DNA of 61,225 nucleotides from assembly GCA_964582465.1 (NCBI GenBank), contig CAZOQX010000004.1, positions 1 through 61,225 on the forward strand, written 5' to 3'. The notes beneath the pieces were generated by a model that did no database searches, had not been told where the DNA came from, and worked only from the letters and a program-made list of their open reading frames with translations. Positions 2,670 through 50,728 of the stretch are shown here, one piece after another. This DNA comes from an uncultured Candidatus Saccharibacteria bacterium (lineage in GTDB: Bacteria > Patescibacteriota > Saccharimonadia > UBA4664 > CAZOQX01). A program made the position numbers and the translations under genes. Numbering within the stretch: the stretch's first letter is position 1; each line of letters begins with the position of its first letter.

Positions 2670-3503
2670 TTATTTTCCAGATTCAAAATGTCTTCTGGCT
2701 AGCAACTCGGCTCCATATAGCGGGGCGGTTTCAACAAATTTGGCCCGCACAACTTTGGGCAGGTAGGGCCGCTTAAAGGCTTTGAGGTGCCGAGCGAGTG
2801 GGGATTTAAAGCGCGCCCAGTGGACGCTGACGCCGCCGCCCAATATGACCACGTTGGGTGAAAGTAGCGTGATCATGTTTACCAGACCTAGAGCCATATC
2901 GGCCGCGATTTTGTCCCATGTCGGCTTATCGTAAATCTCATGGGCCGGCCGGCCGAAGCGGCGCTCAATCGCCGGACCGCTCACGAAGGTCTCGAAGTGA
3001 CCCCGGCCGCCACAATTACATTCGGGACCCTCGGGGTCAATAATCATGTGGCCACCCTCGGTACCGCGGGCGCCGTGGTAAATCTGTTGATTGATAATCA
3101 CTCCCGTACCAATGCCCGTGCCGATAGTGACGTAGAGCACGCTATTTGCGTCTTTGCCAGCTCCCATCAAGGTCTCGGCGTAGCCTGCGGCCGCCGCGTC
3201 GTTTTCGAGCACCACCGGCGCTCCCAGAGCCTTCTCAAGCGCGTCCACTACCCTGGGGTGATGCCAGTGCAAATTGGGTGCATCCAAAATTTGGCCTCTC
3301 GCAAAATCGATCGGACCAGGAGCGGCGACACCAACGGCCTCGATTTTATCCTCTGATGCCAATAATTTGGCGAGCTCACTAATCTGGTTGAGTGTTGTTT
3401 CAAAGTCGGATGTGGTGCTAAAGCGGTAGGTCTGTTTGATTTTGCCCTTAACGAATGAGGCAACTTGCACCTTCGTCCCCCCGACATCAATCGCGATATA
3501 CAT
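2670..3503 (-). CDS. glk: ROK-family glucokinase
   Basis: N-terminal IAIDVGGTK ATP-binding motif and the ROK zinc motif CNCGGRGHFE. 277 aa. Confidence 0.85.
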   Translation of the reverse strand: MYIAIDVGGTKVQVASFVKGKIKQTYRFSTTSDFETTLNQISELAKLLASEDKIEAVGVAAPGPIDFARGQILDAPNLHWHHPRVVDALEKALGAPVVLENDAAAAGYAETLMGAGKDANSVLYVTIGTGIGTGVIINQQIYHGARGTEGGHMIIDPEGPECNCGGRGHFETFVSGPAIERRFGRPAHEIYDKPTWDKIAADMALGLVNMITLLSPNVVILGGGVSVHWARFKSPLARHLKAFKRPYLPKVVRAKFVETAPLYGAELLARRHFESGK

Positions 3504-3590
3504 ACGAGTATTTTATGCCATTACGGCCATGCTTGCCTAATCTCGCAATAATTTGAAGAATAACTACGTACCCCTCTTTAAGGAGCAAAG

Positions 3591-4106
3591 GTGAAGGTAC
3601 CCCAGAAGATGCGTGCTCATACTGCTCGCAAGCTCGCGAATGTGACACCCCGGCAGCTGCGCTACTGGGTAGAGATCGGCCTAGTCGAGCCACTACCAGG
3701 GACGACTGGTACGCCAGGTCGGCTGTGGCTCTTTGCCGACCACGCCGTGGCGCGGGCCAAGGCCATCAGTGAAGCGCTTAGGGATGGGTGGACACTGCAG
3801 AAGATTCGCCAGGCGCAGCTCGGAAGTCATCCGGCGTTGCCCTCACACCTCAGCGTGCTGGAGCGGGAGGAGACTATACTCAGAGAATGGGCGGTCTCAC
3901 CTCAAGATGGGGTAGAGCTCCAGACGAAAGCGGAGTCCGCCTCGGCCCTTCACCAGCCACGCTACACGCAGATCGGCGACTCTGTATTCGTCGCCTGCGA
4001 GGCCTGTGGCCAGTCGAGTGACGAGGGCTACCCGAGTGAAGCCGCGGCTCAGGTAGAGTACACCAAGTGGCGGCATGTGACAGCGAGAAGCTCTGGGGCC
4101 GGTTAG
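3591..4106 (+). CDS. MerR-family HTH protein with unknown Cys-containing C-terminal domain (GC-rich cassette A)
   Basis: GTG start with AAGGAG SD. The motif ARKLANVTPRQLRYWVEIGLVEP matches the MerR HTH signature (..LRyYe..GLl.P). Codon third positions are mostly G/C, unlike the neighbours. Confidence 0.7.
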   Translation: MKVPQKMRAHTARKLANVTPRQLRYWVEIGLVEPLPGTTGTPGRLWLFADHAVARAKAISEALRDGWTLQKIRQAQLGSHPALPSHLSVLEREETILREWAVSPQDGVELQTKAESASALHQPRYTQIGDSVFVACEACGQSSDEGYPSEAAAQVEYTKWRHVTARSSGAG

Positions 4107-4124
4107 CCGGTCCCAGAGCTTCTC
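4085..4124. terminator. 18-bp near-perfect hairpin (bidirectional terminator candidate) spanning the stop codon of the MerR-like gene
   Basis: GAGAAGCTCTGGGGCCGG-TTAG-CCGGTCCCAGAGCTTCTC, with no U-tract. Lies between convergent genes. Confidence 0.6.
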
Positions 4125-4149
4125 GGCTCTTGACGACTTCTCAGAATTT

Positions 4150-5076
4150 CTAATGCGTGGAGATAGATAGCATGACCGTGCCGAGCGTCATTATCAGAAT
4201 CGCAGCGATTTTCTGGACTAGGTGACGCCTTGAGACGTCTTCCTTGATCCAGTGTGGAAATAGCCAAGTGAGCGCTAGCCCGATTAGCAGTAGGAAGATT
4301 GATTGGATCGACGAGACGGCCTGAACGACGGCAATCGGAGCAATCAGCATGGCATAACGCATGGCGATAATACCGCCGAAGTAGAGTGCTTCATTGCCCG
4401 CGCCTAATCTGATCGCAGTCCCCTTATAGCGACGCAGGATACTTATAAACCCCCGCCGGGCCGGTCCGTTAAAGACAAAGATGGCCGCTCCCGCCGCAAT
4501 TTCGCCGGCGTACTGGTAAAACTGGGTCGGCCAAAAGGCGGTATCAAGTGCAACCTTTTTGAATAAGACGTCGCTTGCCGAGATCAGTAGTGATGAAGCC
4601 ACCATCAGGACCAAAACCTCGCGCCGGAAATGCCAACGCTTTTCGCGGCTTTCGAGCGCGAGCAAAATCGAACCCATCACCACAATGCCGGCGGCGAGCA
4701 GCTGATGGAGGGTTAAACGCTCATTTAGGAATATTAGTCCCAGGGTGTAGTTGAAAACCACAATCAGCTGGAACAAGGTGGCGACGAGTGAGGTATCGGC
4801 GATGGCTAAAGACTTGTAGTACAGGTAATAGGACGCCACGAGCATTAATCCGGTAGATACGGCTGCGACAATACTGATAGCGTGGAAGCTCGGCAGAGAC
4901 GACCGGATGAACCAGCCGAGCGCGACCAAAAAGGGTAGGCTGATGACGGTTGCCAAGATAGTAATCGACGTCACGGGCTTATCGCCCAGCCACTTGCTGA
5001 CAAAGTATTTATCAATAAAATTGGTGCTCGCGAAGAGAAATGGTGCTAGTAGCGCCAGGATTATCCAAAGATGCAT
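4150..5076 (-). CDS. EamA/DMT-superfamily transporter
   Basis: 308 aa, about 10 predicted TM helices in two EamA-like halves. Confidence 0.8.
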   Translation of the reverse strand: MHLWIILALLAPFLFASTNFIDKYFVSKWLGDKPVTSITILATVISLPFLVALGWFIRSSLPSFHAISIVAAVSTGLMLVASYYLYYKSLAIADTSLVATLFQLIVVFNYTLGLIFLNERLTLHQLLAAGIVVMGSILLALESREKRWHFRREVLVLMVASSLLISASDVLFKKVALDTAFWPTQFYQYAGEIAAGAAIFVFNGPARRGFISILRRYKGTAIRLGAGNEALYFGGIIAMRYAMLIAPIAVVQAVSSIQSIFLLLIGLALTWLFPHWIKEDVSRRHLVQKIAAILIMTLGTVMLSISTH

Positions 5077-9339: not shown

Positions 9340-10497
9340 ATGCCAGGTCCAGAGGAAGTACAACCAAACGGTCAGGGTGGCTTTGAGGCTGCCAGTGCTC
9401 TCCAACAGGCACTTCAGGAAGCAGCCGAGGCTCATCGTGATATCCTGCAACACGAAGTAGATAGCCTTGATTCAAGGCGTGATCCCGGTGTTGAGCCGGC
9501 CCGTGGCAATTTTTTGTTTGCGCGCTACAAGCCAGAGACCGAGGAGCCGAGTCCGAACGGGCATAGCTCAAATGGCCACAAGGAGTCTAAGCCCATCGCA
9601 GCCGAGGAGCCGAAGCCAGCGCTCGAGTCTGAGCAGTTCCATTATGACAAACTATATCCGCGCGCTAACCATCCATCAAGCCGTAGGCAGGGTGAGGAAG
9701 GGCGCGTTACAAATTCCGAAGCCTGGCGCCTTGCGGCTGAAGAAGTTAAGTTGCATGAAGAGGCCGCCAAACCCTATCGTGAAGCGGAGCTGGGAGCGGA
9801 AAGAAGCCTCAAGGCTGCTGATAGGCTGCGCCGGTCTGATCACGCCCAGGCGGGTGAGCTGCTGCGCGCCAAAGCTAGAGCCAAGTTAGCGGATCTGCGC
9901 GACCAGTCCACGGTCGTATCTAAGCGCGTCAGCGTGGAATTTAACTCCGAGCAGGATCGAGTGAATCAAAAAATCGCTGATAATATTAGCAAGGTTTCTG
10001 AAGCGGAGGAGATTGTTCAATCGGGGAACGAGAAAGCCCTGGCGGTAGATCTGATTGACCCTAACTGGGACGTGATAAATAGTGAGCGTCGAGCTTTGGG
10101 CCGCAGTAATGAGCCGTTTTACGTCAGAAAAGTCGGTGGCAAGAGCAAAGACATCGAGTATTATTTCACTACTACCGACCCGAGCGTGGTGATGGTTGAG
10201 CGGGTTAGTTTGAGAGCGGGGCGGTTGACGGGAATGGGAGCTGTGGTAGCAAGAGAAGCCGTCACGGTTGGTCGCAAGGGTCGGCAGAGGCCCTCGAAAG
10301 AGGTTATGCAGCTGAGTGCGCTGGTTAACTTTTGGGCGCCACATCGAGCTGCCGACCAGCCCAAAGTTCCTCGGCGTGAGCAGGTGCAATACGCAGTCAA
10401 TAATTTAGGCAGCGGCTCGGCTGCAGTTTACGAAAGCTTGGTGCCGCGGCGTAAGCGCAAGGGCCCCGATTGGATGTCGCGGTTGATTAACCGCTAG
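9340..10497 (+). CDS. Hypothetical protein (charged coiled-coil N-half, globular C-half)
   Basis: 385-aa ORF with native codon usage, in the operon position usually held by truB. No motif recognised. Confidence 0.6.
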   Translation: MPGPEEVQPNGQGGFEAASALQQALQEAAEAHRDILQHEVDSLDSRRDPGVEPARGNFLFARYKPETEEPSPNGHSSNGHKESKPIAAEEPKPALESEQFHYDKLYPRANHPSSRRQGEEGRVTNSEAWRLAAEEVKLHEEAAKPYREAELGAERSLKAADRLRRSDHAQAGELLRAKARAKLADLRDQSTVVSKRVSVEFNSEQDRVNQKIADNISKVSEAEEIVQSGNEKALAVDLIDPNWDVINSERRALGRSNEPFYVRKVGGKSKDIEYYFTTTDPSVVMVERVSLRAGRLTGMGAVVAREAVTVGRKGRQRPSKEVMQLSALVNFWAPHRAADQPKVPRREQVQYAVNNLGSGSAAVYESLVPRRKRKGPDWMSRLINR

Positions 10498-30947: not shown

Positions 30948-31109
30948 ATGACACAAACACTGCAGAACCAAGTTTGGCTTAAGTTACTTGAGCGCTATGG
31001 CGCCCTGGAAGTAGCCAAAAAAATTGACGAACTGCCGTCGTATCAATCTTACCGAGCAAAGTACGTGGTGCGGAGTTTTCACAAAACCCATTTAGGAGGG
31101 CGAACTTAG
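30948..31109 (+). CDS. Small hypothetical protein (53 aa) translationally coupled to nrdR
   Basis: ATG 30948 preceded by GGAAGGAGGGG. Its stop TAG overlaps the nrdR GTG start (TAGTG). Confidence 0.45.
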   Translation: MTQTLQNQVWLKLLERYGALEVAKKIDELPSYQSYRAKYVVRSFHKTHLGGRT

Positions 31110-31585
31110 TGCGTTGCAAAGAGTGTGGACAAGCTGGTTCTAGGGTAATTGAGTCGCGCGAGTTGGAAGAGGGCGGTGTAATTAGGCGCCGGCGCCAGTG
31201 CCTGAATTGCAGCTTCCGCTTTACGACGTATGAACGCCTGGAAGTACCGAATTTGGTGGTGATTAAAAAGGACGGCCGGCGGGAAATGTTTGATCGCGAC
31301 AAGGTGGCCGCCGGAGTTTATAGAGCCTGCGAAAAGCGGCCGATTCCGATTGGCTTGGTGGATTCTGCTATCCGTCAGATTGAGCGCGAGGTCCAAGCGA
31401 TGGCCGAGACGGAGGTACCCAGCCGACTGATCGGGGAAATGGTCATGACCAAATTGATAGAGCTGGATGATGTGGCTTATGTACGGTTTGCGAGCGTTTA
31501 CCGCAGTTTCAAGGATGTGGCGAGTTTTGAGCGTGAATTGGCGAAATTGAAGGAACGAGCTCTAGGCAAAAATCAGGTGAGTTAG
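31109..31585 (+). CDS. nrdR: Transcriptional repressor NrdR
   Basis: N-terminal zinc ribbon MRCKECG...CLNC followed by an ATP-cone. Native (~50% GC) composition. Confidence 0.93.
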   Translation: MRCKECGQAGSRVIESRELEEGGVIRRRRQCLNCSFRFTTYERLEVPNLVVIKKDGRREMFDRDKVAAGVYRACEKRPIPIGLVDSAIRQIEREVQAMAETEVPSRLIGEMVMTKLIELDDVAYVRFASVYRSFKDVASFERELAKLKERALGKNQVS

Positions 31586-31659
31586 CCATTAATCTTGGTC
31601 CGCCTGCGGTGGATCGAGACTAGCGACTAACGCTAGGGGGACATTGACAACTTGATCAC

Positions 31660-34600
31660 TCTTTAACTGTGCGGGCTTTGCGGAGTATGAGGGCTGGGAG
31701 GGCCCCTGGTGCTTCGCCTGCCCGTACAGTTAGTACAACAACTTGTCTCGCGGGCTTGGGTTACAACAATCTGCCCGCGTGGCAGGGAGGAGGCAGCAAA
31801 TGGCAACGACACAGAACGAGCTGCAGGAGCAGGGGGCCGGAGGCCTTTCCTTCGAGCGGCGCTTCACGCAGGCGGGCATCAAGCCTTTCGACCAGGTGGA
31901 GTGGGAGATCCGTGACGCGGTCATCCCGAACTTCAAGGAGGGTGGCAACGCCTTCGAGCAGAAGGACGTGGAGTTCCCGAAGGAGTGGAGCCAGAACGCC
32001 ACCAACATCGCGGCGCAGAAGTACTTCCGTGGCACCCTCGGTACGCCCGAGCGTGAACGCAGCGTCCGACAGCTGATCGGCCGCGTGGTCGACACCATCA
32101 AGAGCTGGGGCAAGCAGGGCGGCTACTTCGCGTCCGGTCAGGACGCCGAGGTGTTCGCCGACGAGCTTGCCTTCATCCTGGTGACGCAGCGGGCGGCCTT
32201 CAACTCGCCGGTATGGTTCAACGTCGGTGTGCCGGACACGCCGCAGCAGTGCTCGGCGTGCTTCATTCTGCACGTCGACGACAAGATGAGCTCCATCCTC
32301 AACTGGTACGTCGAAGAGGGCACCATCTTCAAGGGCGGCTCCGGCTCCGGCATCAACCTGTCGACGATCCGATCGTCCAAGGAGGGACTGGAGGGCGGTG
32401 GCACGGCCTCGGGTCCGGTCAGCTTCATGCGCGGCGCCGACGCCTCCGCGGGGACCATCAAGTCCGGTGGCAAGACGCGCCGGGCGGCCAAGATGGTCAT
32501 CCTGAACGTCGACCACCCGGACGTGCGCGACTTCATCTGGTGCAAGGCCCACGAGGAGAAGAAGGCCCGCGCTCTGCGCGACGCCGGATTCGACATGGAC
32601 CTGGACGGCAAGGACAGCAACTCGGTCCAGTACCAGAACGCCAACAACTCGGTGCGCGTGACCGACGAGTTCTTGCACGCCTACGAGAACGACGCCGACT
32701 GGAAGCTCAAGGCCATCACCACCGGGGAGGTGGTCGAGACCGTGCGTGCTCGCGACCTCATGCGTGAGATCGCCCAGGCTGCTTGGGAGTGCGCCGACCC
32801 GGGGGTGCAGTACGACACGGTCATCAACGACTGGCACACCTGCCCGGCATCCGGCCGGATCAACGGGTCCAACCCGTGCAGCGAGTACATGCACCTCGAC
32901 AACTCGGCCTGCAACCTGGCCTCACTGAATCTGCTGAAGTTCGCCGACGCGAACGGTACGTTCAGCGTGGCCGATTTTCGCTACGCCGTCGAGATCATCT
33001 TCACGGCACAGGAAATCCTGGTGGGAGCGAGCGACCCGGAGACGGGACAGAAGCTCTACGGCTCGGACTACCCGACGGAGGCCATCGGTGCCAATGCTCG
33101 GGCTTTCCGCCAGCTCGGCATGGGCTACGCCAACCTGGGCGCCCTGCTCATGGCGAATGGCCTGCCCTACGATTCCAACGAGGGTCGGGCCACGGCCGGC
33201 GCGATCACCGCCATCATGACGGGTCACGCCTACGCCACTTCGGCCAAGATCGCTGAGCAGGTCGGTACGTTCCGGGACTTCGAGCCCAACCGCGACGCCA
33301 TGCTGCGCGTCATGCGCAAGCACCGGGCTGCGGCGGATCTGATCGACCCCGAGGCAGTGCCGGAAGGCCTGCTTTCGGCGGCTGTGCAGGTCTGGGACAA
33401 CGCCGTCTCGCTCGGTGAGAGGCACGGTTACCGCAACGCCCAGGCCACGGTGCTCGCACCCACCGGGACCATCGGTCTCATGATGGACTGCGACACCACC
33501 GGCATCGAGCCCGACCTGGCTCTGCGCAAGCACAAGAAGCTGGTCGGCGGCGGCACCATGGAGATCGTCAACCAGACGATTCCGCGGGCGCTCGCCAAGC
33601 TCGGCTACTCCTCGCAGGAGAGCGACGAAGTGGTCGCCTACATCGCCGAGCACAACTCGGTGGACGGGGCGCCCCACCTCAAGGTCGAGCACTACCCGGT
33701 GTTCGACACCTCCATGGGGGAGCAGGCCATCCACTACATGGGTCACGTCAAGATGATGGCGGCGGCCCAGCCCTTCCTCTCCGGCGCTATCTCCAAGACG
33801 GTCAACATGCCGGAAGGGGCCACCGTCGAAGAGGTGGAGCAGCTGTTCGTCGAGGGCTGGAAGCTCGGCCTGAAGGCGGTCGCCATCTACCGCGACAACT
33901 GCAAGGTGGCCCAGCCCCTGGCGGCCGAGAAGAAGACCGTCGAGGTCGAGGAGGCTCCGTCGACGCTGCCGTGGTCGTCCAAGAAGCGCCTCCCCGCAGT
34001 CCGTACGGCCAAGACCTTCTCGTTCGCGGTCGGCGAGGCAGAGGGATACATCACCGCCGGCGAGTACCCGGACGACGGCCTCGGCGAGATCTTCCTGAAG
34101 GTCTCGAAGCAGGGTTCGACCCTGGCTGGCCTGGTGGATGCCTTCTCGATCGCCGTGTCGGTCGGACTGCAGTACGGTGTGCCCCTGGAGGACTACGTCC
34201 AGAAGTTCATCAACATGCGGTTCGAGCCGTCCGGTGTCACCAACGACAGGGACATTCGGTTCGCGAGCTCAGTGGTCGACTACATCTTCCGTCGGCTGGC
34301 GCTCGAATACCTGTCACCGCAGCAGCGCGAAGAACTGGGGATCAGGTCCGTCGCCGAGCGCAAGCAGAACATCGATGCGGCAGGTGGCATGGACGCTGCA
34401 GCGGCGGCCTACGGTCCGACCGTGGTGCACGCCGAGCCACCGGCCCCCTCACCGACGGTGGTGGAGGTCGTGGCCAAGCCCAAGGCGCGAACGCTCGACG
34501 ATGCGCCGCTGTGCTACAGCTGCGGATCGAAGATGCAGCCGGCGGGCTCGTGCTACGTCTGCAACTCCTGCGGCTCGACGTCCGGCTGCAGCTAGGGCTT

Positions 34601-35266: not shown

Positions 35267-38149
35267 ATGAAGAAGGCTGAGGTTCTAAATTTTCCGCAGT
35301 TTGAGGAGGAGATTCTCAAGCTTTGGGAGAAAGAAGGTACATTTGAGCAGAGCGTAGAGCAGCGAAAAGATGCCAAACGCTTTAGCTTTTACGATGGACC
35401 GCCCTTTGCTAACGGTTTGCCGCACTATGGCCATGCGCTTGCTTCGGCAGAAAAGGACGCGGTGGTGCGCTATAAAACCATGCGCGGTTATTTTGTGCCG
35501 CGACGGGCGGGATGGGATACGCACGGCTTGCCGGTGGAGTATGAGGTGGAAAAACAGCTCAAGATTTCGAGTAAGAAACAAATTCTCGAGATGGGCATCG
35601 AAGCCTTTAACCAGGCCTGCCGCGATAGTGTGTTTAAGTATAGGGCTGAGTGGGAACAATTTATTATCCGCTTCGGGCGCTGGATTGACCTCAAAAATGC
35701 CTACGCCACCCTAGACACTAGTTATATTGAAAGCGTCTGGTGGGTCTTTAGTGAGTTGTACAAAAAAGGCTTGATCTACCAGGGCTTTAAGAGCATGCCC
35801 TACTGTCCGCGCTGTGCCACGCCGCTATCTAACTTCGAGCTTAATCAGGGATACCAGGATAATGTTGAAGATCCGAGTGTTTTTGTAAAATTCCCAATGC
35901 ATGGTAATAAGGGCGAGTATTTCTTAGCTTGGACCACTACACCTTGGACGCTCCCCGCAAATGCGGCGCTCGCGGTCAAAGCCGAGGCGACCTATGTGCA
36001 GGTAAAAATGAAGAACGATGGTGACGGTTGGTCCAAAGGAGATCTGTTGTGGCTGGCCGAGTCGCGGCTCGAAGTCTTGGATTTGCGCCAAGGCGAATAC
36101 GAAATTAACGCCAAGGCCAAGGGGAAAGAACTTGAGGGGCAACGGTACAAGCCGCTGTACGAGCCAGAATCGCTAACCGACGAAGAACGCTCAGCGGCGT
36201 GGAAAATTTACCTTGATGAAAGCGTGGACCTAGAGGATGGCACGGGGATTTTGCATGTAGCGCCGCGCTACGGCGAAACTGATCTTGAACTGGGACTAAA
36301 GGTGGGGCTTCCCCTCATTGAAAGCGTTGATGCGAGTGGGCAAATGACTGACTTGTTACCGCAGGTTACGGGGCAGTTCTTTAAGGAGGCCGATCCTCAC
36401 ATTGTGGCCGACCTGGTCGTAAAGGGTCATATTTTTGCTGCTGAAAAGTTTACTCACACTTATCCGTTTTGTTGGCGCTGCGATACGGCTTTAATGTACT
36501 TCGCTACGCCTAGCTGGTTTGTGCAGGTGACGAAGTTTACCGATAAACTCATAAACAATAATCAAAAGATAACCTGGGTACCGGCCCACATTAAGGATGG
36601 TCGGTTTGGCAATTGGATTGCCGAAGCCCGTGATTGGGGGGTGTCGCGCAGTCGATTTTGGGGGGCGCCGCTACCAGTTTGGCAGTGCGCAGAGGGGCAC
36701 TTTACGGTGATTGGGGGAATAGACGAACTTAAGTCTCAGGCGACGAAAAAAGTTGAATTGACCGATTTGCACCGACCCTACATTGATGCGATCGAGCTCA
36801 AATGCTCGGAGTGTGACCAGCCGGCCAGGCGCGTCGAAGAGGTATTTGACTGTTGGTTTGAGTCGGGCAGCATGCCCTACGCCGAGGACCATTATCCATT
36901 TGAGAATCAGCAAGAATTTAAAGACAAATTCCCAGCTGATTTTATCGCCGAAGGCATGGACCAGACCAGAGGTTGGTTTTACACTCTGCATGTGCTTGCG
37001 AGTGCTTTGTTCGACCAACCGGCATTTGAAAACGTGATTGTAAATGGGATTGTGGTTGCAGCCGACGGCAAAAAGCTATCCAAGCGTTTGCGTAATTATC
37101 CGGACATTTCTGAGGTACTCGTAAAGTATGGGGCTGATTCATTGCGCTTCTTTTTGCTATCGAGCTCGGTGGTAGCGGGCGAAGATGTGCGTTTTTCCCT
37201 CGATATTGTGGGCGAGGTCAATCGAAATATTTTTATGACGCTGTGGAATGTTTACAATTTCTTGGCAACTTATGCTGAAGCTGAGCAGTGGCAGCCGGGA
37301 CAAAAGTTGGAAGCACCTCAGAGCAGAAACGTGCTCGATCGCTGGATCCTAGCGCGGCTTGAAGAAACTACGGTTGAGATGACCAAGGCGGCCGACCGTT
37401 ATGAACTTCATCGCGCTACCCGGCCTCTGCGCGAGCTCGTTGATGATCTATCAAACTGGTATCTTAGGCGGAGTCGGCGCCGTTTTTCCAAAAATGATGA
37501 CAAGGCCGATAAAGTGCAGGCTTATGCCACTTTGCATTACGTGCTCGTGCGGCTTTGCCAGTTGCTTGCACCCTGGTCACCGTTTACGAGCGAGAAGATG
37601 TATCGGGAGTTGGCTCAGGGTATGGAATTGCCGGCAAGTGTACATTTAACTGATTGGCCGGAAGCGGGCAAGGTAGACACGGAAGTGATTGAACAAATGG
37701 CGCTCGCCCGTAGCATTGTGAATGAGGGCTTGGCTCAACGCGCCGCCGCTGGTATCAAGGTCCGGCAGCCTCTCGGCAAACTGGCGGGCCCTCAGGAGCT
37801 AGAAGAAGCTCTACGGACTGTGGTAAAAGATGAGGTGAACGTCAAGGAGTATGTGGAGGCAGGTGAGACTAAGCTTGATATTGCGCTCACCAAGGAGCTG
37901 AGAAGTGAAGGTCTGGCTCGTGACGTCATTCGTTTGGTACAAGACCAGCGCAAATTAGCCGGTTTAAAACCGGGTGATCACATTAAGCTCGATCTTGAGG
38001 CGGGGGACGAATTAGCGGCTGCTCTCACTAAGTGGAAAGATCTGATTCAAGCCGAAACCTTAGCGGTCGCGAGCATGATCGAAGCCAAGCCTAACGGACC
38101 GCTCAAGGTTAGTGGGCACACGATTGCCATAAAGATCGAGCGGGCATGA
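35267..38149 (+). CDS. ileS: Isoleucyl-tRNA synthetase, type 2 (eukaryote-like)
   Basis: FYDGPPFANGLPHYGH HIGH region (type-2 signature) and the KMSKS variant KLSKRL. 960 aa. Confidence 0.96.
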   Translation: MKKAEVLNFPQFEEEILKLWEKEGTFEQSVEQRKDAKRFSFYDGPPFANGLPHYGHALASAEKDAVVRYKTMRGYFVPRRAGWDTHGLPVEYEVEKQLKISSKKQILEMGIEAFNQACRDSVFKYRAEWEQFIIRFGRWIDLKNAYATLDTSYIESVWWVFSELYKKGLIYQGFKSMPYCPRCATPLSNFELNQGYQDNVEDPSVFVKFPMHGNKGEYFLAWTTTPWTLPANAALAVKAEATYVQVKMKNDGDGWSKGDLLWLAESRLEVLDLRQGEYEINAKAKGKELEGQRYKPLYEPESLTDEERSAAWKIYLDESVDLEDGTGILHVAPRYGETDLELGLKVGLPLIESVDASGQMTDLLPQVTGQFFKEADPHIVADLVVKGHIFAAEKFTHTYPFCWRCDTALMYFATPSWFVQVTKFTDKLINNNQKITWVPAHIKDGRFGNWIAEARDWGVSRSRFWGAPLPVWQCAEGHFTVIGGIDELKSQATKKVELTDLHRPYIDAIELKCSECDQPARRVEEVFDCWFESGSMPYAEDHYPFENQQEFKDKFPADFIAEGMDQTRGWFYTLHVLASALFDQPAFENVIVNGIVVAADGKKLSKRLRNYPDISEVLVKYGADSLRFFLLSSSVVAGEDVRFSLDIVGEVNRNIFMTLWNVYNFLATYAEAEQWQPGQKLEAPQSRNVLDRWILARLEETTVEMTKAADRYELHRATRPLRELVDDLSNWYLRRSRRRFSKNDDKADKVQAYATLHYVLVRLCQLLAPWSPFTSEKMYRELAQGMELPASVHLTDWPEAGKVDTEVIEQMALARSIVNEGLAQRAAAGIKVRQPLGKLAGPQELEEALRTVVKDEVNVKEYVEAGETKLDIALTKELRSEGLARDVIRLVQDQRKLAGLKPGDHIKLDLEAGDELAAALTKWKDLIQAETLAVASMIEAKPNGPLKVSGHTIAIKIERA

Positions 38150-42162: not shown

Positions 42163-43572
42163 ATGAGTGAGATCAGTCCGGGCCTTATCCGGGGAATTTT
42201 CAGCTTCAGGCCCGTATCAAAGCGCCGACTTAGCAACAGGCTCGACACCGACTTTTCTAAACTACCACAAGCGAAAAGCCGATTTGTGCTGCGCAAAGTG
42301 ACGCTAGTCGCCATACTTCTAGTGATCGCAGTGGTGGCTTATTTCGGGATCAAAACTCTAATTGCAACTAGCAGGATTATTAGCCGCGATAAAAACAGTG
42401 GCGCACCAGCCTTTGCTGGTGCGGTTGACCCGACCAAGTTACGAGGAGAAGGGGATGGACGGGTTAATATTTTGCTTCTCGGCATTGGCGGCCAAGGTCA
42501 TGAGGCGCCGAATCTGAGCGATACCATTATTGTGGCAAGCATTGATCCGCGGACTAAGGATGTGGCCATGCTCAGCGTTCCACGCGATTTATGGGTTAGC
42601 ATTCCGCAGCGTGGCTACGCCAAGGTTAACGCTGCCTATGCCTACGGTGAGATGAGTCGTGCGGGTAATGGGCCAGCTCTCGCTAAAGCCACCATTTCGA
42701 AAATCCTTGATTTGCCAATTCATTACTATATTAGGGTGGACTTTGCTGGTTTTCGCCAAGCTATTGATACGGTGGGTGGTGTCGATGTTCATGTTGATAA
42801 GCCCCTCTACGATCCCTATTTCCCGAGTGACAGCGAAAACGGCTGGTATCAGCCTTTTTACATTACAGCTGGTGATCATCATATGGGCGGCGTGATCGCA
42901 CTGCGCTATGCCCGGTCGCGCGAAACCACTAGCGACTTTGACCGGGCGGCACGTCAACAGAAGGTGCTGGTAGCCCTGCGCCAGAAGGTTTTAAGCAGTT
43001 CCACGCTACTTAATCCGGCCAAGATTACTAGCCTCATCAATATCTTCGGTAATCATATCGAAACCGATTTGAAGGTAAACGAGATGTTAAAATTGACGGA
43101 TTTAATTAAGGGGGTGGATACCACCAAGATTACCAATAAAGTGCTCGATAATACGCCGCAGGGATTGCTGAAAGACGGCAATGTGGGTGGTGCCTACGTG
43201 CTTTTGCCCCGCGCCGGTAACTTTAGTGAAGTCCAGGCCTTCGCCCACTCGATTTTCGTGGACAGTTACTTGAAAGATGAGCACGCTGCGGTTGAGGTTT
43301 CTAACGGGGCTGCCCGAGCGGGAGTTGCGACCGCGGTAGCTCAAGCACTCTCGTCTTATAACTACAACGTTACCAAGGTCACAACTGCACCAGCACCGGT
43401 CGGCAAGACGGTAATTTATGATTACACCGGGGGGACGAAGCCGTATACTATTAATTATCTGGAGGCGCGCTTTAAGCTGAAGGTCCAAAAAATGCCCAAG
43501 GCTACAGCGGGAGCTCCCGAGATAAAAATAGTAATAGGCCAAGACTACAAAAATAATGCCTTCGCGCTCTAG
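42163..43572 (+). CDS. LytR-CpsA-Psr (LCP) family cell-envelope phosphotransferase
   Basis: N-terminal TM segment, NILLLGIGG and SDTIIVASIDP motifs. Confidence 0.88.
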   Translation: MSEISPGLIRGIFSFRPVSKRRLSNRLDTDFSKLPQAKSRFVLRKVTLVAILLVIAVVAYFGIKTLIATSRIISRDKNSGAPAFAGAVDPTKLRGEGDGRVNILLLGIGGQGHEAPNLSDTIIVASIDPRTKDVAMLSVPRDLWVSIPQRGYAKVNAAYAYGEMSRAGNGPALAKATISKILDLPIHYYIRVDFAGFRQAIDTVGGVDVHVDKPLYDPYFPSDSENGWYQPFYITAGDHHMGGVIALRYARSRETTSDFDRAARQQKVLVALRQKVLSSSTLLNPAKITSLINIFGNHIETDLKVNEMLKLTDLIKGVDTTKITNKVLDNTPQGLLKDGNVGGAYVLLPRAGNFSEVQAFAHSIFVDSYLKDEHAAVEVSNGAARAGVATAVAQALSSYNYNVTKVTTAPAPVGKTVIYDYTGGTKPYTINYLEARFKLKVQKMPKATAGAPEIKIVIGQDYKNNAFAL

Positions 43573-44311
43573 TTTAATTCGTTTACGCTTTCAAGCCGCC
43601 GACTTGACCCTAGCGGTGGTTGTACTTCTGCTTGGTGCTCGGAGCGGTTGGGCTTGGGTGGCGCTACTGCTAGTTTTGGGCGGAGAAATTTACCGCTGGC
43701 GTTTTCGTGCCGGCGAATCGGTCGATGGTCTGGATTTCGCGGCTAACTCAATTGCTAGGATGAGCTTGCTGGGGATTGCGGTGCTAACACCTAGCACCAT
43801 CGGTAAACTTCTAATCGGATTGGTTTACCTTAGTAGTGTTTTTTGGTTGCGACCGGCTGACAGTGTCGAAATGGCCATGCGGGTGGCTCAAACGGCGGTG
43901 ACGCAGTTTCTATCCCTGATGGTAATCTTCCTGGCGCAAGCTTTTTGGCATTTTCCGGCCTTTTTGGTGGTGGGCTGGGCATGGGCAAGCAGTTACGTTT
44001 TGGCCTATCGCTTGCTTAATCATTTTGAGGAGCGGGCAGCGGCAGTGCTCGCAGCTGGTTGGGCTCTTTTGGTCAGTGAAGCTAGTTGGATCTTCTCAAT
44101 TTGGCTTGTAAACTATATCTTGCCCGGGGGCATCCTAACTGTGCCGCAGCCAGCTTTGGTGATTACGGCCTTGTCCTATAGTCTGGGCGGGATATATTTA
44201 TCGCACCGGGCCAATCATTTGAGCCGAACTCGCCTGATTGAATTTCTGTTGATTGGGCTGGTGGCTCTGACCGTGGTTATTTCGGGTACAAACTGGCGCG
44301 GAGCCATTTAA
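43556..44311 (+). CDS. Polytopic membrane protein, function unknown
   Basis: 251 aa, about 7 hydrophobic helices. Overlaps the LCP gene end. Confidence 0.6.
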   Translation: MPSRSSLIRLRFQAADLTLAVVVLLLGARSGWAWVALLLVLGGEIYRWRFRAGESVDGLDFAANSIARMSLLGIAVLTPSTIGKLLIGLVYLSSVFWLRPADSVEMAMRVAQTAVTQFLSLMVIFLAQAFWHFPAFLVVGWAWASSYVLAYRLLNHFEERAAAVLAAGWALLVSEASWIFSIWLVNYILPGGILTVPQPALVITALSYSLGGIYLSHRANHLSRTRLIEFLLIGLVALTVVISGTNWRGAI

Positions 44312-44349: not shown

Positions 44350-45522
44350 ATGGCAAAAGAACAACCAGAAAAACCTGATTCAGTAGTTAGCCCCATCGAA
44401 CGTCTGCCCATTGCAAGCGTAAACGAGCGACGCAGCATGCTTTATACCGCCATTGTGGCTGGCCTGGTCGCCGGAGTGGTCGCAAGCCTGTTGGCTCTAC
44501 GCTACTGGCCCGGGTTAATTCCGGTAGCGAAGCAGCAAATTTTAGTGCAACAGTCGTCTGCCATTATCGATGTGGTTAAAAAAGTTTCACCCTCGGTAGT
44601 GAGTATTTCTTCCCAAACTACTACCCAGGATCTCTTCGGCTTTGGGCAGACTCAATCGACTGGCGAGGGGACGGGCATAGTGGTCTCGGCCGATGGCCTA
44701 ATTTTAACGAACAAGCACGTGGTTCCTTCTGACGCTTCAAATTTCAGCGTTTTTACAGCGAGTGGTAAGGAATACAAAGATGCGAAAGTGATCGCGCGCG
44801 ATTCGATTAATGATATCGCTTTCGTGAAAATTAACGCGAGCGGTCTCACCCCCGTGCAGCTGGGAGATTCATCAAACATCCAAGTCGGCCAGGAGGTGAT
44901 CGCGATCGGTAACGCTCTCGGCCAGTTTAAAAATAGTGCGACCGTTGGCATAATTTCTGGAATTGCCCGCTCGGTCGAGGCTAGCGACCAACTTGGTGGC
45001 AGCGCCGAATCATTGCAGAACTTGTTCCAAACCGACGCCGCCATTAACCCCGGTAACTCGGGTGGTCCGCTGATTGACTTGAGCGGTCACGTCATTGGTA
45101 TTAATACCGCTGTGGCTGGTGACGCGCAAAGTATCGGTTTTGCCATTCCCATTAACGAGGTGAAGCCGCTATTGGACAGCGTCAAGCAGAAGGGCCACAT
45201 TGTGCACCCCTACATTGGTGTGCGCTATGTCCCGATTACGGCTGATTTTGCGAGTGCCAATAATTTGCCGGTAACTCACGGAGCCTATGTGAGCGGCGAT
45301 CAGTCTAACCCGGCAGTTGTGCCCGACGGTCCAGCCGCCAAGGCGGGCTTGCAAGACGGCGACATCATTACCAAAGTTAATTCTGATACCATTAGCGATC
45401 AAAATAGCCTAACGGCGCTGGTGGGCAAGTACAAGGTGGGTGATAAGGTAACGCTCACTATTATCCGCGACGGCAAGACCATTACCAAGAGTGTCGCGCT
45501 GGGCGAAGCTCCGCAGGGTTAA
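44350..45522 (+). CDS. htrA: HtrA/DegP-family serine protease with PDZ domain
   Basis: ATG 44350 after GGAGGAAAG. Catalytic triad context TNKHVV, NDIAFVKI, GNSGGPL. C-terminal PDZ. Confidence 0.93.
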   Translation: MAKEQPEKPDSVVSPIERLPIASVNERRSMLYTAIVAGLVAGVVASLLALRYWPGLIPVAKQQILVQQSSAIIDVVKKVSPSVVSISSQTTTQDLFGFGQTQSTGEGTGIVVSADGLILTNKHVVPSDASNFSVFTASGKEYKDAKVIARDSINDIAFVKINASGLTPVQLGDSSNIQVGQEVIAIGNALGQFKNSATVGIISGIARSVEASDQLGGSAESLQNLFQTDAAINPGNSGGPLIDLSGHVIGINTAVAGDAQSIGFAIPINEVKPLLDSVKQKGHIVHPYIGVRYVPITADFASANNLPVTHGAYVSGDQSNPAVVPDGPAAKAGLQDGDIITKVNSDTISDQNSLTALVGKYKVGDKVTLTIIRDGKTITKSVALGEAPQG

Positions 45523-45589
45523 CGCTCATGCTTGCAATAATTATCACAAAATCGTAAAACTTAAGTCACCCGACGAAGGAGGGAGAGTC

Positions 45590-46315
45590 ATGCCTGTGGG
45601 GGCCTGGACGGTATTGGCGATCTTGGTGGTCGCCCTTGTCTTCTGCATCTCGCTCATCGTTTCGATCGACCGCGATCGCACACGTACGGCCTTCGAACTG
45701 ACCAAGCACAAGGAGCAGTTCATCCTGGTCAAAGGATTCCACAGTGACTATGGCTACTTCGTCATCTTCTCCATGGATCGGGGGGATACCTGGTTCGCCC
45801 TGGAAAGGGTCTACGAGCAGCAGAAGATCAAGTACCATATCGTCGGTTATGCCGACAAGATCTATCCGGGGATCATCAGTCGCCGCGAACTGATCGAGCA
45901 GCTGCGGCGATCGTTCGGGATCGGCTGGTTGACGCCAGACAAGGTCAGCAACGAGGACGCCGCTCGGCTGAGTGAGTTGGCGTTCGGTCCCCCAAAGGAT
46001 CGTGAGTCGCAGCCAGGGGATGACTACTACATCGTGGAGCATGGTCCGATGGGTCCAACATCTGGCGCTTCCGAGGAGAGCATGGTCATCGACCCTGAGG
46101 CGATGGGAGTGGTCTCGGCCGACAGGGTAAAGACTGTCGTCGCACAGCCGACCGCAAAGCTGGTGGACTCACCGCTACAGCCCCGCGTTTCCTATGCCGA
46201 CGACGAAGGCCTCGCGCCCGACGCCGAGTTGAGGCGCCAGCACATGAGTGAGGATCTCCCCGATCTTCAACCGGGCACGCCACGCGGCCCCCTCACCGAG
46301 GAGCATGGCAGATAG
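45590..46315 (+). CDS. Membrane-anchored hypothetical protein (N-terminal TM, ~120-aa globular domain, disordered acidic/Pro-rich tail)
   Basis: ATG 45590 after GAAGGAGGGAG. The ORF-track start 45491 overlaps htrA and is rejected. Confidence 0.6.
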   Translation: MPVGAWTVLAILVVALVFCISLIVSIDRDRTRTAFELTKHKEQFILVKGFHSDYGYFVIFSMDRGDTWFALERVYEQQKIKYHIVGYADKIYPGIISRRELIEQLRRSFGIGWLTPDKVSNEDAARLSELAFGPPKDRESQPGDDYYIVEHGPMGPTSGASEESMVIDPEAMGVVSADRVKTVVAQPTAKLVDSPLQPRVSYADDEGLAPDAELRRQHMSEDLPDLQPGTPRGPLTEEHGR

Positions 46316-46443
46316 GCACGCTCTAGCCCGCAACAGTTTCGGTCGATCCAGATTGTTGCGGGTCGACCTAAGCGCTCAAAACTGAGCTTTTAGGTTGTAA
46401 ATGGCCTCAAACTTCAAATTTTTGAAACCTAAGGTCAGGCGCC

Positions 46444-47040
46444 TTATGCAGGCGCCGGTTGTTCGATCCGGAGGAACTCGGAGATGTCGGTATGGATGGT
46501 CGGCTCCAACGAGTGTGGAGCGATTGGCATGATGGCGGCGTGGCGGATCTGGCCGTTACCTCGTGCCAGGAAGTTGATAGACCAGTTCCGCTGCCTGTGC
46601 CAATTGACCTTCACTCCATCTGGATCGTCTATCGCTAGAAGACCCGAGAGGGCTTGTCTCAAGTAGTACGTGTTGAGGCAAAGGCCACCTTTAAAGATTG
46701 GGAGAACGCCGTGGTGTTCTCCGCTATAGGGTGGCCCGGCAAGGGCGTCAAGCAGGCTTGGTATGTCCTCCGGCGCAAAGATTCCGCCCCGCTTACCTGG
46801 CTCGAGTATCTTGTTGATGGCGGCAAGGGCGAAGAACTCGGAATCGGGCATTCGTAGCTCGCGGTTCAGGTAGAGGCCCTCTTCGGCGATTGGCTCCTCC
46901 ACTTCCGCCCGATGCAGGCGGTAACTGTCGGTAGCAGTCAGAGTCCGCCCTCCATTTGTCACTTGAACCAGAGCAAAGGGAAGCGCATCCCCAGTTGCTA
47001 GCTTCAGCCAAGTCCAGACTTCCGGAATGTCAACATTCAT
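46444..47040 (-). CDS. Short beta-sliding-clamp-like (DnaN-like) protein, ~198 aa
   Basis: LTATDSYRLHRAEV resembles the DnaN motif (V)ATDGHRLA. LCLNTYYLRQAL...HAAIMPI resembles the DnaN C-terminus (GFN..YL.D.L ... yvvMPmR). ATG 47040 is preferred (GGGAG 5 nt upstream); the ORF could extend to TTG 47097. Confidence 0.55.
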   Translation of the reverse strand: MNVDIPEVWTWLKLATGDALPFALVQVTNGGRTLTATDSYRLHRAEVEEPIAEEGLYLNRELRMPDSEFFALAAINKILEPGKRGGIFAPEDIPSLLDALAGPPYSGEHHGVLPIFKGGLCLNTYYLRQALSGLLAIDDPDGVKVNWHRQRNWSINFLARGNGQIRHAAIMPIAPHSLEPTIHTDISEFLRIEQPAPA

Positions 47041-47098
47041 ATCTACTCCCGGATCGAGAAGTAGACACATTATCTCCGGTGCAGTTTTACTGGGCAAG

Positions 47099-47902
47099 CT
47101 AGAGCTTTTTGAAGCAGCTCACAAAATAATCTTGTTCAACTATTTTTAGTCCCTGAGATTGGGCCATTCTCTCAAGTTCAGGTTGTTGCCAGGGGTCGGA
47201 TTCAATGATGAGATATCCGTCGGCATTTAAGTGGCTGGGCACCTGCGGAAAAAACTGCGCGTAAACTGCCAGGCCTTTTGTGCCGCCGATTAAGGCTACC
47301 TTGGGTTCGTAGTGGGCTTCGGGGTTGAGCGCGTCCTCGCTCGGAACGTAGGGCAGGTTAGCCACAATCACATCGAAGTACCCCACCATGTCTTTCAAAA
47401 GGTCACTTTGGATTAATTTGATTTTTGAGTTGTGCCGTTTTTTATTCGCGAGCGCTATCGTTAAAGCCTGTGTAGAAATATCGGTGGCGGTAATTTTAAG
47501 GTCGGGCCGAGATTTGTGAATAGCAATGGCGAGCGCGCCTGAGCCAGTGCCAATATCGAGCAGCCGGCCGTCCCGGGGTGCGTATTTAATGGCAAGCTCA
47601 ACAATTTTTTCGGACTCGGGGCGGGGACTGAGCACGGTCTCATTGACCTGAAAAGTTAGGCCGTAAAACTCTTTTTGCTTCGTGAGATGGGCAAGTGGTG
47701 TACGGTTAACTCGGCGGTTTGCGAGCTCATTTAATTTGGCGATTTCGGCCGGATCCAATTCGTACTCGGGGTGGGCGAGTAGCCAGGCGCGATCATGTCC
47801 GGTGGCGGTCTCTACGAGCAGCAAGGCGTCTAAATCGGCCGTGCCGATCTCGGCCGCGTGCAGTTTCTTGCGAGTCTGCTTGAGTGCCTCGCTCGCGGTC
47901 AT
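47099..47902 (-). CDS. prmC: Release-factor glutamine N5-methyltransferase PrmC/HemK
   Basis: SAM motif [11 protein letters not shown] and the catalytic tetrapeptide present as NLPY. Overlaps prfA. Confidence 0.9.
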
Positions 47903-48960
47903 TCGATCGTAGATTGCTCTAGGGCTAGCTTTTGCTCGGCTGCGCGCAGGGCACTAAGCAATGGGTCGATATTACCAGCCAGGACTTCTTCCATCCGGTG
48001 GACGGTTAGACCGATGCGGTGATCGGTAATGCGATCTTGGGGGAAGTTATAAGTGCGGATTTTCTCACTGCGATCTCCGGATCCAATCTGGCCGCGGCGG
48101 GTGGCATCAAGCTCTTTGCGCTCGGCCTCAAGCTTCAGGGCAAGCAGGCGCGCGCGCAGAACACCCAAGGCCTTTTCCTTATTCTTGAGCTGGCTTTTTT
48201 CATCCTGGCAGGTTACCACCAAACCCGTTGGCAGGTGAGTAATGCGCACAGCCGAATCGGTCGTATTAACAGATTGGCCGCCGTGTCCGCCAGCCCGGAA
48301 GACGTCAATCCGCAGGTCGGCCGGGTTAATCTCGAGCTCGGTTTCCTCCGCTTCCGGAAGCACGGCTACCGTGACAGTGGAGGTATGGATGCGGCCGCCC
48401 GACTCGGTGACGGGAATCCGCTGGACCCGGTGAACGCCAGATTCGTATTTGAGCCAGCCGTACGCGCCATCGCCTCTAATTGCAAAAATAATTTCTTTGT
48501 AACCGCCGACTTCGGAGGGGCTCTCCGAAATTAGTTCAACCGCCCACCGGCGGGATTCGGCGTAGCGGGCGTACATGCGATAAAGCTCGCCGGCAAATAG
48601 AGAAGCTTCATCGCCGCCGGCCCCGGCTCTAATTTCCAAAATAGCGTTTTTGGCATCGGTCGGATCTTTGGGTGCCAGCGCCAGCTCTAGATCACTTTCT
48701 GCTCGGGTAAGCTCGGTGTCTAAGCTAGCACGCTCGGCTAAGGCTAGGTCAGCTAGTTCCGGATCCTGTTGGGCGGTGTTGTTATCGTGCACGGCCTTCC
48801 TTAGTTTGGCTACACGCAAAAATAAAGCTTCCAGGGCTTCCAGCTCGGACTGGCGTTTGGTGAGCTTTACAAACTCTTTGGTGCCGAAGATTTCAGGATC
48901 TTGCAGCTCAGCTTGAATTTGCTCAAGCTCGGCACGAATTTTTGATTCGGTGTCGGACAT
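47899..48960 (-). CDS. prfA: Peptide chain release factor 1
   Basis: PVT anticodon-like tripeptide and the GGQ motif ([11 protein letters not shown]). Confidence 0.96.
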
Positions 48961-49981: not shown

Positions 49982-50728
49982 ATGGAAGTAAAAATCGAAC
50001 AACTATTCGAAGCCGGTGCTCATTTTGGGCACCAAACCCGTCGCTGGAACCCCAAAATGAAGCCTTATATCTTCGGGGTGAGGAGCGGCGTTCATATTTT
50101 AGACTTAGAGCAGACGGTGGAGAAATTAGCTGACGCCATGAAATTCGCCGAGCAGGTGACGGCAAGCGGGGGTAATATCTTATTTGTCGGCACCAAACGC
50201 CAGGCCGCCGCCATCGTGCGAGAAGAGGCGGAGGCCGCCGGCATGCCGTACATGACCGATCGCTGGCTGGGTGGCACGCTGACTAATTTTCGGACCATTA
50301 AATCACAGGTGGGTCGGCTGGCAGCTCTTCGCGCCAAGCTAGCTGATGAACAGGTGAAGCTGAGCAAGAAAGACCGCTCGGGCTTGGAAATGGAAGCGGC
50401 CAAGTTGGAGCAAACTTTCCGGGGCATTGAGCATATGAATCAACTGCCAACGGCCGTCTATGTGGCCGACGTGCCGCATGAGGAGATTGCCGTACGCGAG
50501 GCGATTAAATTGGGGATTCCGGTGATCGCTATTGTTGACACTAACGCTGATCCTGATCTGGCCAACCAGCCTATTCCCGCCAATGATGATGCGATTAAAA
50601 CCATTAAGCTCGTCACCCACGCTATTGCCGAAGCCGCACAGAAGGGCCACCAGGCTCATGAATCCAAGGCGGCGAAGTTGCGCGAAGAGGAGAGTAAAAG
50701 CAAGGAGGTCGAGAATGCCGAAGCCTGA
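49982..50728 (+). CDS. rpsB: 30S ribosomal protein S2
   Basis: LFEAGAHFGHQTRRWNPKM N-terminal signature. Confidence 0.97.
   Translation: MEVKIEQLFEAGAHFGHQTRRWNPKMKPYIFGVRSGVHILDLEQTVEKLADAMKFAEQVTASGGNILFVGTKRQAAAIVREEAEAAGMPYMTDRWLGGTLTNFRTIKSQVGRLAALRAKLADEQVKLSKKDRSGLEMEAAKLEQTFRGIEHMNQLPTAVYVADVPHEEIAVREAIKLGIPVIAIVDTNADPDLANQPIPANDDAIKTIKLVTHAIAEAAQKGHQAHESKAAKLREEESKSKEVENAEA

Follow-up and report, generated by a model that had tools for sequence, protein, structure and literature searches.

Does the chromosome of an uncultured Candidatus Saccharibacteria bacterium encode a half-length relative of the β sliding clamp, DnaN, and what could such a protein do? The question is raised by a gene in the first 61,225 nucleotides of contig CAZOQX010000004.1 (assembly GCA_964582465.1; the whole of this stretch is hereafter the window), in whose product a sequence-only reading had recognised two clamp-like signatures. 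That reading had offered a two-domain protein closing a ring as a trimer, a decoy for clamp-binding proteins, or a decayed dnaN fragment.

46444..47040, minus strand: target gene, encoding a soluble acidic protein of 198 amino acids (basis: open reading frame list, Shine-Dalgarno sequence, guanine-plus-cytosine (GC) content at codon positions 1, 2 and 3 (GC1/2/3), and codon score)

Our analyses revealed that the target is a real gene, restricted to its lineage and coding for 198 amino acids, and that a single segment of its product resembles the β clamp non-randomly. Judged from these sequence comparisons, the product may have descended from a β sliding clamp, bacterial or phage, through strong divergence and truncation, with a layout like that of a family of short phage proteins (phrog_3007), a reading that we hold tentatively, with appreciable doubt, and as no likelier than a chance resemblance.

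An intact gene with one clamp-like hairpin

The full minus-strand open frame (46444..47097) spans 217 amino acids when started from TTG 47097, with alternative in-frame starts at ATG 47070 (208 amino acids) and ATG 47040 (198 amino acids). We took the 198-amino-acid form as the product because a Shine-Dalgarno sequence, GGGAG, precedes ATG 47040 with a 5-nt spacer (minus-strand read) and because an independent gene call on a Logan contig chose the same start; the roughly 198-residue product of the sequence-only reading therefore stands, with its frame intact. Base composition across the frame is coding-like (GC1/2/3 of 0.64/0.43/0.64), its codon score is the highest of the six frames, and the remaining frames of the stretch are closed. 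The preceding gene, prmC, ends …KKL-TAG with its stop at 47099-47101, and TTG 47097 follows 1 base further on.

47041..47098, minus strand: spacer from the prmC stop to ATG 47040, holding the Shine-Dalgarno sequence and a σ70-like match, TTGCCC-17-GATAAT (sequence read and promoter scan; the σ70-like element is a consensus match only)

46891..46968, minus strand: codons 25-50 (VQVTNGGRTLTATDSYRLHRAEVEEP), the sole non-random similarity, to the β2-β3 hairpin of β-clamp domain II (hhalign, hmmsearch, shuffles and decoys)

Residues 25-50 (…LTATDSYRLHRAEV…) correspond to the β2-β3 hairpin of clamp domain II, which bears T172, R176 and L177 of the peptide-binding pocket. T, D, R and L of the hairpin motif (VATDGHRLA) are kept in the target, while G174 is replaced by S and H175 by Y. 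Three profiles reproduced the match, and none of 3000-5000 shuffles attained the target's score on any of them. Against a 13-clamp profile (E. coli DnaN plus 12 phage clamps, 20-36% identity), target residues 27-50 aligned with profile positions 160-183 (hhalign P=0.002; 7.1 bits in unfiltered hmmsearch). A domain II profile gave 10.5 bits (P 3.4e-5), a score reached by 0 of 3000 shuffles (maximum 4.5), and a domain I profile gave 1.1-1.3 bits. On the domain II profile the target also ranked first among 184 decoys (open reading frames of at least 100 amino acids from the window and unrelated loci), with 10.5 bits as against 3.8 for the next best. The highest score, 12.5 bits, came from an actinophage clamp profile (reached by 0 of up to 5000 shuffles), which did not lengthen the match and is not well calibrated because one decoy frame reaches 8.2 bits on it. 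The N-terminal DnaN-like signature that had been noticed by eye is thus non-random on a one-to-one test (P ~3e-5, three profiles, top of 184 decoys).

Pairwise comparison gave the clamp of Arthrobacter phage Hestia (gp71, residues 146-180) as the best match, in an alignment that extends to the preceding 'LP' (GDALPF-ALVQ-VTNGG-RTLTATDSYRLHRAEVE in the target versus DGTLPILAAVQMVTEGDSLTLRSTDRYRLAEVEIQ in the Hestia clamp). Full-length actinophage clamps of this kind (phrog_947) therefore supply both the best pairwise match and the highest profile score, and their high GC agrees with the composition of the DNA around the target, whereas they are three-domain proteins of ~358 amino acids and the similarity is limited to ~32 residues. 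BLASTP against E. coli DnaN returned only TATDSYRL/VATDGHRL, with 5/8 identities and E=2.2.

Collinear echoes towards the C-terminus

The second signature had been placed near the C-terminus, where two segments recall parts of clamp domain III.

46645..46680, minus strand: codons 121-132 (CLNTYYLRQALS), weak echo of the clamp 'GFNxxYLxDxL' helix (N320/Y323); best local alignment, not significant

46516..46536, minus strand: codons 169-175 (AIMPIAP), weak echo of the clamp 'VVMPMR' strand (M362/P363); forced collinear alignment only

Of all local alignments to the domain III and III-b profiles, the one through LNTYYLRQAL scores highest (-2.7 and -1.3 bits; P ~0.06-0.1). This C-terminal signature (LNTYYLRQAL…IMPIAP) was upheld in part, in that the best local alignment to domain III does fall there, and failed in significance (-1.2 to -2.7 bits, with 6-10% of shuffles as good).

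Because local methods ignore weak collinear signal, we forced the target into collinear alignment with a 'domain II + III-b' profile derived from 19 full-length clamps, and it scored above 300/300 shuffles and 100/100 real decoy windows (z ~6). With residues 1-50 fixed and residues 51-198 shuffled or exchanged for segments of real proteins, the excess fell to z 1.7-2.2 (P ~0.015-0.06), the counts of shuffles as good as the target being 6/400, 25/400, 9/300 and 3/200. II+IIIb was the best architecture tried, with z of -0.5 for II+IIIa, -0.9 for II+Ia and 1.0 for II+Ib.

In the forced alignment L24 pairs with L155, T37 with T172, R41 with R176, L42 with L177, a PPY…VLP stretch with P242…V247-P249, N122 with N320, Y125 with Y323, M171 with M362 and P172 with P363. 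The residues listed for the clamp pocket are R152, L155, T172, G174, H175, R176, L177, P242, R246, V247, V360 and M362 in subsite I, and H175, N320, Y323, V344 and M362-R365 in subsite II (PMC11139829); 10 of these 18 distinct residues are identical in the target when so aligned (L155, T172, R176, L177, P242, V247, N320, Y323, M362 and P363). A helix-like segment of the target occupies the place of the domain II β6-β8 sheet. Compared with DnaN as a whole (E. coli b3701; PF00712/PF02767/PF02768), the likeness thus comprises residues 25-50, set against the hairpin …L.TVATDGHRLAV…, and weak collinear echoes of P242/V247, N320/Y323 and M362/P363. The target differs in having 198-217 amino acids as against ~366 (three-domain clamps have ~360-400), in having no domain I and an undetectable domain III, and in matching no clamp family model.

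Half-length clamp-like proteins of phages

Half-length β-like proteins do exist as annotated phage genes, with the layout that the sequence-only reading had inferred.

L021:1570-2151: Burkholderia phage Bcep43 gp15, 193 amino acids, with the depositor's note 'DNA Pol III b subunit fragment'

Bcep43 gp15 matches Pfam PF02767 (E 2.4e-6), and its relatives occur in at least 237 GenBank phage records (Salmonella, Escherichia, Klebsiella, Burkholderia, Ralstonia and others) and in at least 233 IMG/VR stretches. Nearly all of the open reading frames extracted from IMG/VR (78/80) encode 170-223 amino acids, the other two encoding 98 and 246. Members from Salmonella, Escherichia and Klebsiella phages (~178 amino acids) carry the name 'DNA polymerase III beta subunit'. 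The family is phrog_3007 in PHROGs, where it is labelled 'RusA-like Holliday junction resolvase', as it is in several GenBank records; this is evidently a mislabel, apparently a propagated one. Full-length phage clamps form a separate entry (phrog_947).

The phrog_3007 consensus reads …RYYLNG…ATDGHR…VDGRFPDxRR…FNAxYLAD…VxMPxR. The family finds β clamps in PDB at E 3e-27, with the main alignment covering E. coli β 136-303 and an alternative alignment placing the last 60 positions of the family on E. coli β 315-366. Of the collinear layouts compared, 'domain II + last half of domain III' suits the members best (mean score 108.5, vs 98.5 and 88.9 for the two alternatives), and the motifs that they keep are exactly the residues listed for the clamp peptide-binding pocket (PMC11139829). 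Half-length clamp-like proteins are in this sense already known as a kind in phages, though unstudied: our literature searches turned up no study of half-length clamps, of what they do or of Bcep43 gp15.

The target resembles this family in length (198 amino acids, within the 170-223 class), in its motif order (ATDxxR, a Pro-rich linker, NxxYL and a C-terminal MPx), in its motif spacings (85 and 50, vs 82 and 48 in Bcep43 gp15) and in its best-fitting architecture, domain II plus the last half-domain of III. It differs in lacking RYYLNG and VDGRFPDxRR, in having the G, the H and both R invariants replaced, and in being encoded in a core chromosomal region and not in a phage.

A separate observation concerns full-length clamps in phage records. 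The unannotated record of Campylobacter phage A18a (MG065686.1, 174.6 kb) encodes at 113831-114928 a protein that agrees with E. coli K-12 DnaN at 366/366 residues (100% identity), which suggests E. coli contamination or misassembly of the record.

Searches for relatives

Exact-protein look-ups of the target returned only the same Logan contig, and when 5.8 billion clusters were searched by word index, first at E<=0.001 and then at E<=10, the target matched itself alone. Exhaustive phmmer over 1.84 billion representatives returned only the target and one further protein, P0002, which we rejected as spurious: it repeats a plant-type kinase fragment five times in tandem, and the weak repeats sum up. 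The target had no tblastn match in phages, plasmids or viral contigs, nor had the neighbouring cassette gene in phages, and blastn of the cassette DNA against plasmids gave nothing. PHROGs gave no match to the target at E<=1.

These negatives are to be read against the sampling of the lineage. RpsB (49982-50728), PrfA (47899-48960) and IleS (35267-38149) of the same window are each singletons at 90% identity among ~15 billion proteins, so the organism is without a close sequenced relative, and the nearest PrmC sequences found in GTDB species genomes and JGI metagenomes share no more than 31-41% identity with its own. In a lineage so thinly sampled, lineage-specific genes must look like orphans.

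The GC-rich cassette and its surroundings

The target lies in a cassette of ~1.5 kb and two genes, between htrA and prmC. GC is 57-61% over 45600-47000 vs ~50-53% in the flanks, and the two cassette genes score only ~0.03-0.04 bits per codon against the host codon table (0.03 for the target), where htrA, prmC, prfA, ileS and rpsB score 0.20-0.37. The earlier description of a foreign-composition cassette is therefore a fair one, borne out by the GC-rich stretch and by the atypical codon usage of both genes. Pfam confirmed the position between htrA and prmC, giving the order LCP protein, membrane protein without a family, HtrA (Trypsin_2 + PDZ), the two cassette genes, PrmC, PrfA and L31 (rpmE). 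The target shares the orientation of prfA-prmC and lies directly downstream, at the 3' end of that gene string. The window is core chromosome (rRNA, IF-2, FtsZ, IleS) and not phage. That no replication genes lie nearby is correct for the immediate neighbourhood and does not extend to the wider window, where PriA and RecJ are encoded 25-33 kb away.

45590..46315, plus strand: convergent neighbour gene, 241 amino acids, with an N-terminal transmembrane anchor, a Pro/Asp/Glu-rich tail and GC3 of 0.76

46316..46443, no strand: intergenic region between the convergent cassette genes, with three hairpins (RNA fold, inverted repeat and terminator scan)

The neighbour, which the sequence-only reading had described as a convergent orphan membrane protein, fits that description: it has a GGAGG ribosome-binding site, a single strong N-terminal transmembrane segment, no family in Pfam, PHROGs, NCBIfam or PADLOC, and no homologue among ~15 billion proteins. 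The 131-nt span between the two stop codons folds at -47.2 kcal/mol (z=-3.9), and 0/200 shuffles fold as well. It includes an inverted repeat at 46327-46362 (CCCGCAACA…TGTTGCGGG), a 13-bp stem immediately 3' of the target stop codon and a terminator-like site at 46374-46387, and region 46316-46443 matches no Rfam family; a bidirectional terminator is its probable identity. The cassette is flanked by neither direct repeats nor tRNA genes that would point to an integration site, and the window holds no paralogue.

The stretch was recovered from three soil-metagenome runs of one study (X1, X2 and X3). Run X1 gave independent Logan contigs over 45207-46787 (depth 8.5) and 46785-48063 (depth 9.5) with no mismatch, and run X2 gave contigs over 45161-45742 and 46766-47301. 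Since both junctions, htrA-cassette and target-prmC, lie inside single contigs in two samples, with 0-1 mismatches and even depth, the cassette is not an assembly chimera. Apparent 'joints' across the cassette were discounted, as their sides are only 20-33 nt long and lie in contigs of other organisms. Within the 4 kb examined, only two between-sample differences belong to this organism, both in the cassette and both non-synonymous: 46970 A>T, giving L24Q in the target (run X2), and 45929 T>A, giving L114M in the neighbour (run X3, at low depth and near a contig end). A third, at 48040 in prfA, was set aside because it comes from mixed contigs of other organisms. The position that varies in run X2, L24, is the one matched to pocket residue L155 when the alignment is forced.

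Elsewhere in the window, 31109-34595 encodes NrdR and then a 950-residue class II (B12-dependent) ribonucleotide reductase at 65% GC and GC3 0.89, as against ~52% GC for the genome. Here lies a second compositional island, much stronger than the cassette and probably acquired horizontally from a high-GC donor. The L31 gene (48979-49464) is a 161-codon frame whose Pfam L31 domain covers residues 17-79 and which carries an acidic, Ala/Glu/Pro-rich C-terminal extension of ~80 residues. Just upstream of htrA, 43556-44311 encodes a multi-pass membrane protein of 251 amino acids with no Pfam family and a codon score of 0.026, and a frame of 385 amino acids at 9340-10497 likewise has no Pfam family. 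The first features of the window are a 23S rRNA gene, of which only the 3' end is included (1-409), and a 5S rRNA gene (533-643); both could serve for taxonomic placement.

Weighing a clamp origin against its alternatives

If the product does derive from a clamp, it would combine the opening half of a domain-II-like unit (a helix and the β2-β3 hairpin, 'LP…LTATDSYRL') with the last βαβββ half-domain ('LNTYYL…IMPI'), which would be the same overall layout as in phrog_3007. A high-GC donor may have supplied the gene together with the cassette; the closest single match is to an actinophage clamp. With ~1.5 domains, a canonical six-domain ring, as dimer or trimer, is impossible, and a functional product would more plausibly be a soluble module presenting a degenerate version of the clamp peptide-binding groove. 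More speculatively, it might bind proteins with clamp-binding motifs, or the host clamp, as a decoy or adaptor. The stronger proposal, a chromosomally fixed 'mini-clamp' that would be an extremely diverged cellular counterpart of the short phage clamps, a groove without a ring titrating or redirecting polymerases and repair factors, we consider unlikely.

A good deal weighs against a clamp origin, and much of it suits the alternative that the target is a real gene of some non-clamp fold whose 26-residue hairpin match arose by chance or convergence, as would be expected about once per all-family comparison. At the scale of Pfam, P 3e-5 multiplied by 24,736 models is E ~0.8; a match at E ~1 goes unreported by libraries, lies in the range where false positives are common, and was here noticed after the fact, in a reading that ranged over many genes. 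The target matches no Pfam or NCBIfam family at E<=10, no PDB sequence at E<=10 and nothing in PADLOC, so that HMMER against the DNA_pol3_beta domains, one of the checks proposed with the sequence-only reading, was negative at normal thresholds. Homologues of similar length, also proposed there as a check, were not found, nor were any of other lengths, among ~15 billion proteins. Everything beyond residues 25-50 is marginal (P 0.03-0.1): the whole domain III profile gives -1.2 bits with 10% of shuffles as good, real C-terminal decoys equal the target in 7/112 cases (6%), and the target lacks R152, H175 (Y instead), R246, R365 and the linker VDGRFPDxRR, so that the linker and three pocket arginines are missing. 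The short-family profile also failed. A 7-sequence phrog_3007 profile gave -2.2 bits (840/5000 shuffles as good, P=0.17; hhalign P=0.38), a 31-sequence non-redundant profile -0.6 bits (121/5000 shuffles, P=0.024; rank 25 of 184 decoys), and hhalign in global mode found no positive alignment. The target, with a conditional z of 2.2 and a score of 49.5, falls far below all 30 of 30 genuine phrog_3007 proteins from outside the profile (z 6.3-16.5, scores 77-134), and of the family invariants T43, G45, H46, P106, R110, L129 and R175 (gp15 numbering) it has 2/7 (T37 and L126), possibly with the PPY proline. By no profile test, then, is it a phrog_3007 member, and its sequence would at best make it a far more diverged chromosomal variant. 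Structure prediction of the monomer failed: single-sequence AlphaFold2 models reached a predicted local distance difference test (pLDDT) score of 30.5 (198 amino acids) and 32.3 (217 amino acids), which is unusable, and Foldseek on such a model found no clamp (best E 0.17, template-modelling score <=0.2), a result that is meaningless at such pLDDT. Low-confidence secondary structure (helix 5-16, hairpin 24-35, helix 124-132, then three strands) is compatible with a clamp and carries little weight. Around the target we found neither a dnaA-dnaN-recF context nor a phage replication module, the flanks being htrA, prmC, prfA and rpmE. The decoy frame at 8.2 bits on the narrow actinophage profile points the same way. 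Yet an unrelated orphan would have to explain why the match falls on the most conserved motif of the clamp, why three different profiles reproduce it with the target a clear outlier among 184 decoys, and why the weak matches elsewhere keep a collinear order and the correct spacing and show specificity for II+IIIb among the architectures tried. We regard such an orphan as just as plausible as a clamp origin, and likewise short of probable.

A derivative of a clamp might also be a decaying relic, a foreign dnaN-like gene that has lost its function and is carried downstream of prmC as an eroded frame. Clamp motifs surviving as vestiges only, codon usage unadapted to the host, and the two non-synonymous cassette differences (L24Q and L114M) would all suit decay, but 198-217 codons remain intact (a chance of ~4e-4 per frame start at this GC, by estimate), with a good Shine-Dalgarno sequence and coding-like GC1/2/3, and relaxed selection could not be deduced from so small a number as two differences, one of them seen at low depth. 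When the other frames of 45400-47250 were compared with clamp profiles none scored, and this absence of frameshifted dnaN remnants alongside goes against the internally deleted pseudogene considered in the sequence-only reading. Decay of this kind is improbable. An open frame arisen by chance in GC-rich DNA, whether non-coding or foreign, would account for the missing homologues, for a stretch that was found in no RNA runs and for a codon score barely positive against host genes, but a frame of 198-217 codons is improbable by chance at 57% GC, GC1 exceeds GC2 as is typical of coding sequence while all other frames are closed, the Shine-Dalgarno sequence stands at the right distance, a structured, terminator-like region follows the stop codon, and an independent gene caller predicted the gene; that it is no gene at all is very improbable. 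Least credible is the two-domain clamp closing a ring as a PCNA-like or gp45-like trimer. Length arithmetic (198 amino acids, ~55% of DnaN) and the N-terminal clamp-like hairpin speak for it, and it shares with PCNA and T4 gp45 solely the idea of a sub-length clamp-fold subunit. Two full clamp domains require ~230-260 amino acids, however, whereas the collinear alignment covers ~1.5 domains (domain II plus one half-domain, if the layout is real) with the domain II β6-β8 sheet apparently missing; the target matches no PCNA or gp45 family in Pfam or PHROGs, neither clamp loader nor polymerase is encoded nearby, and the models (pLDDT 30-32) offer no usable structure. The trimer suggested in the sequence-only reading is accordingly not borne out.

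What the locus means

If the resemblance is due to chance, the target is an orphan gene of the ordinary lineage-specific sort, in a small insert of foreign composition. If the clamp relationship is true, the β-clamp fold could be reduced to ~1.5 domains without a phage as host and be retained by a bacterial chromosome, which would point to a non-ring use of the protein-binding groove of the clamp in a decoy, an adaptor or a regulator. There is current interest in that groove as an antibiotic target. For the decoy idea, phrog_3007, a large half-length family that keeps just the pocket-forming parts of β, is the better-supported place, and may be the more useful lead.

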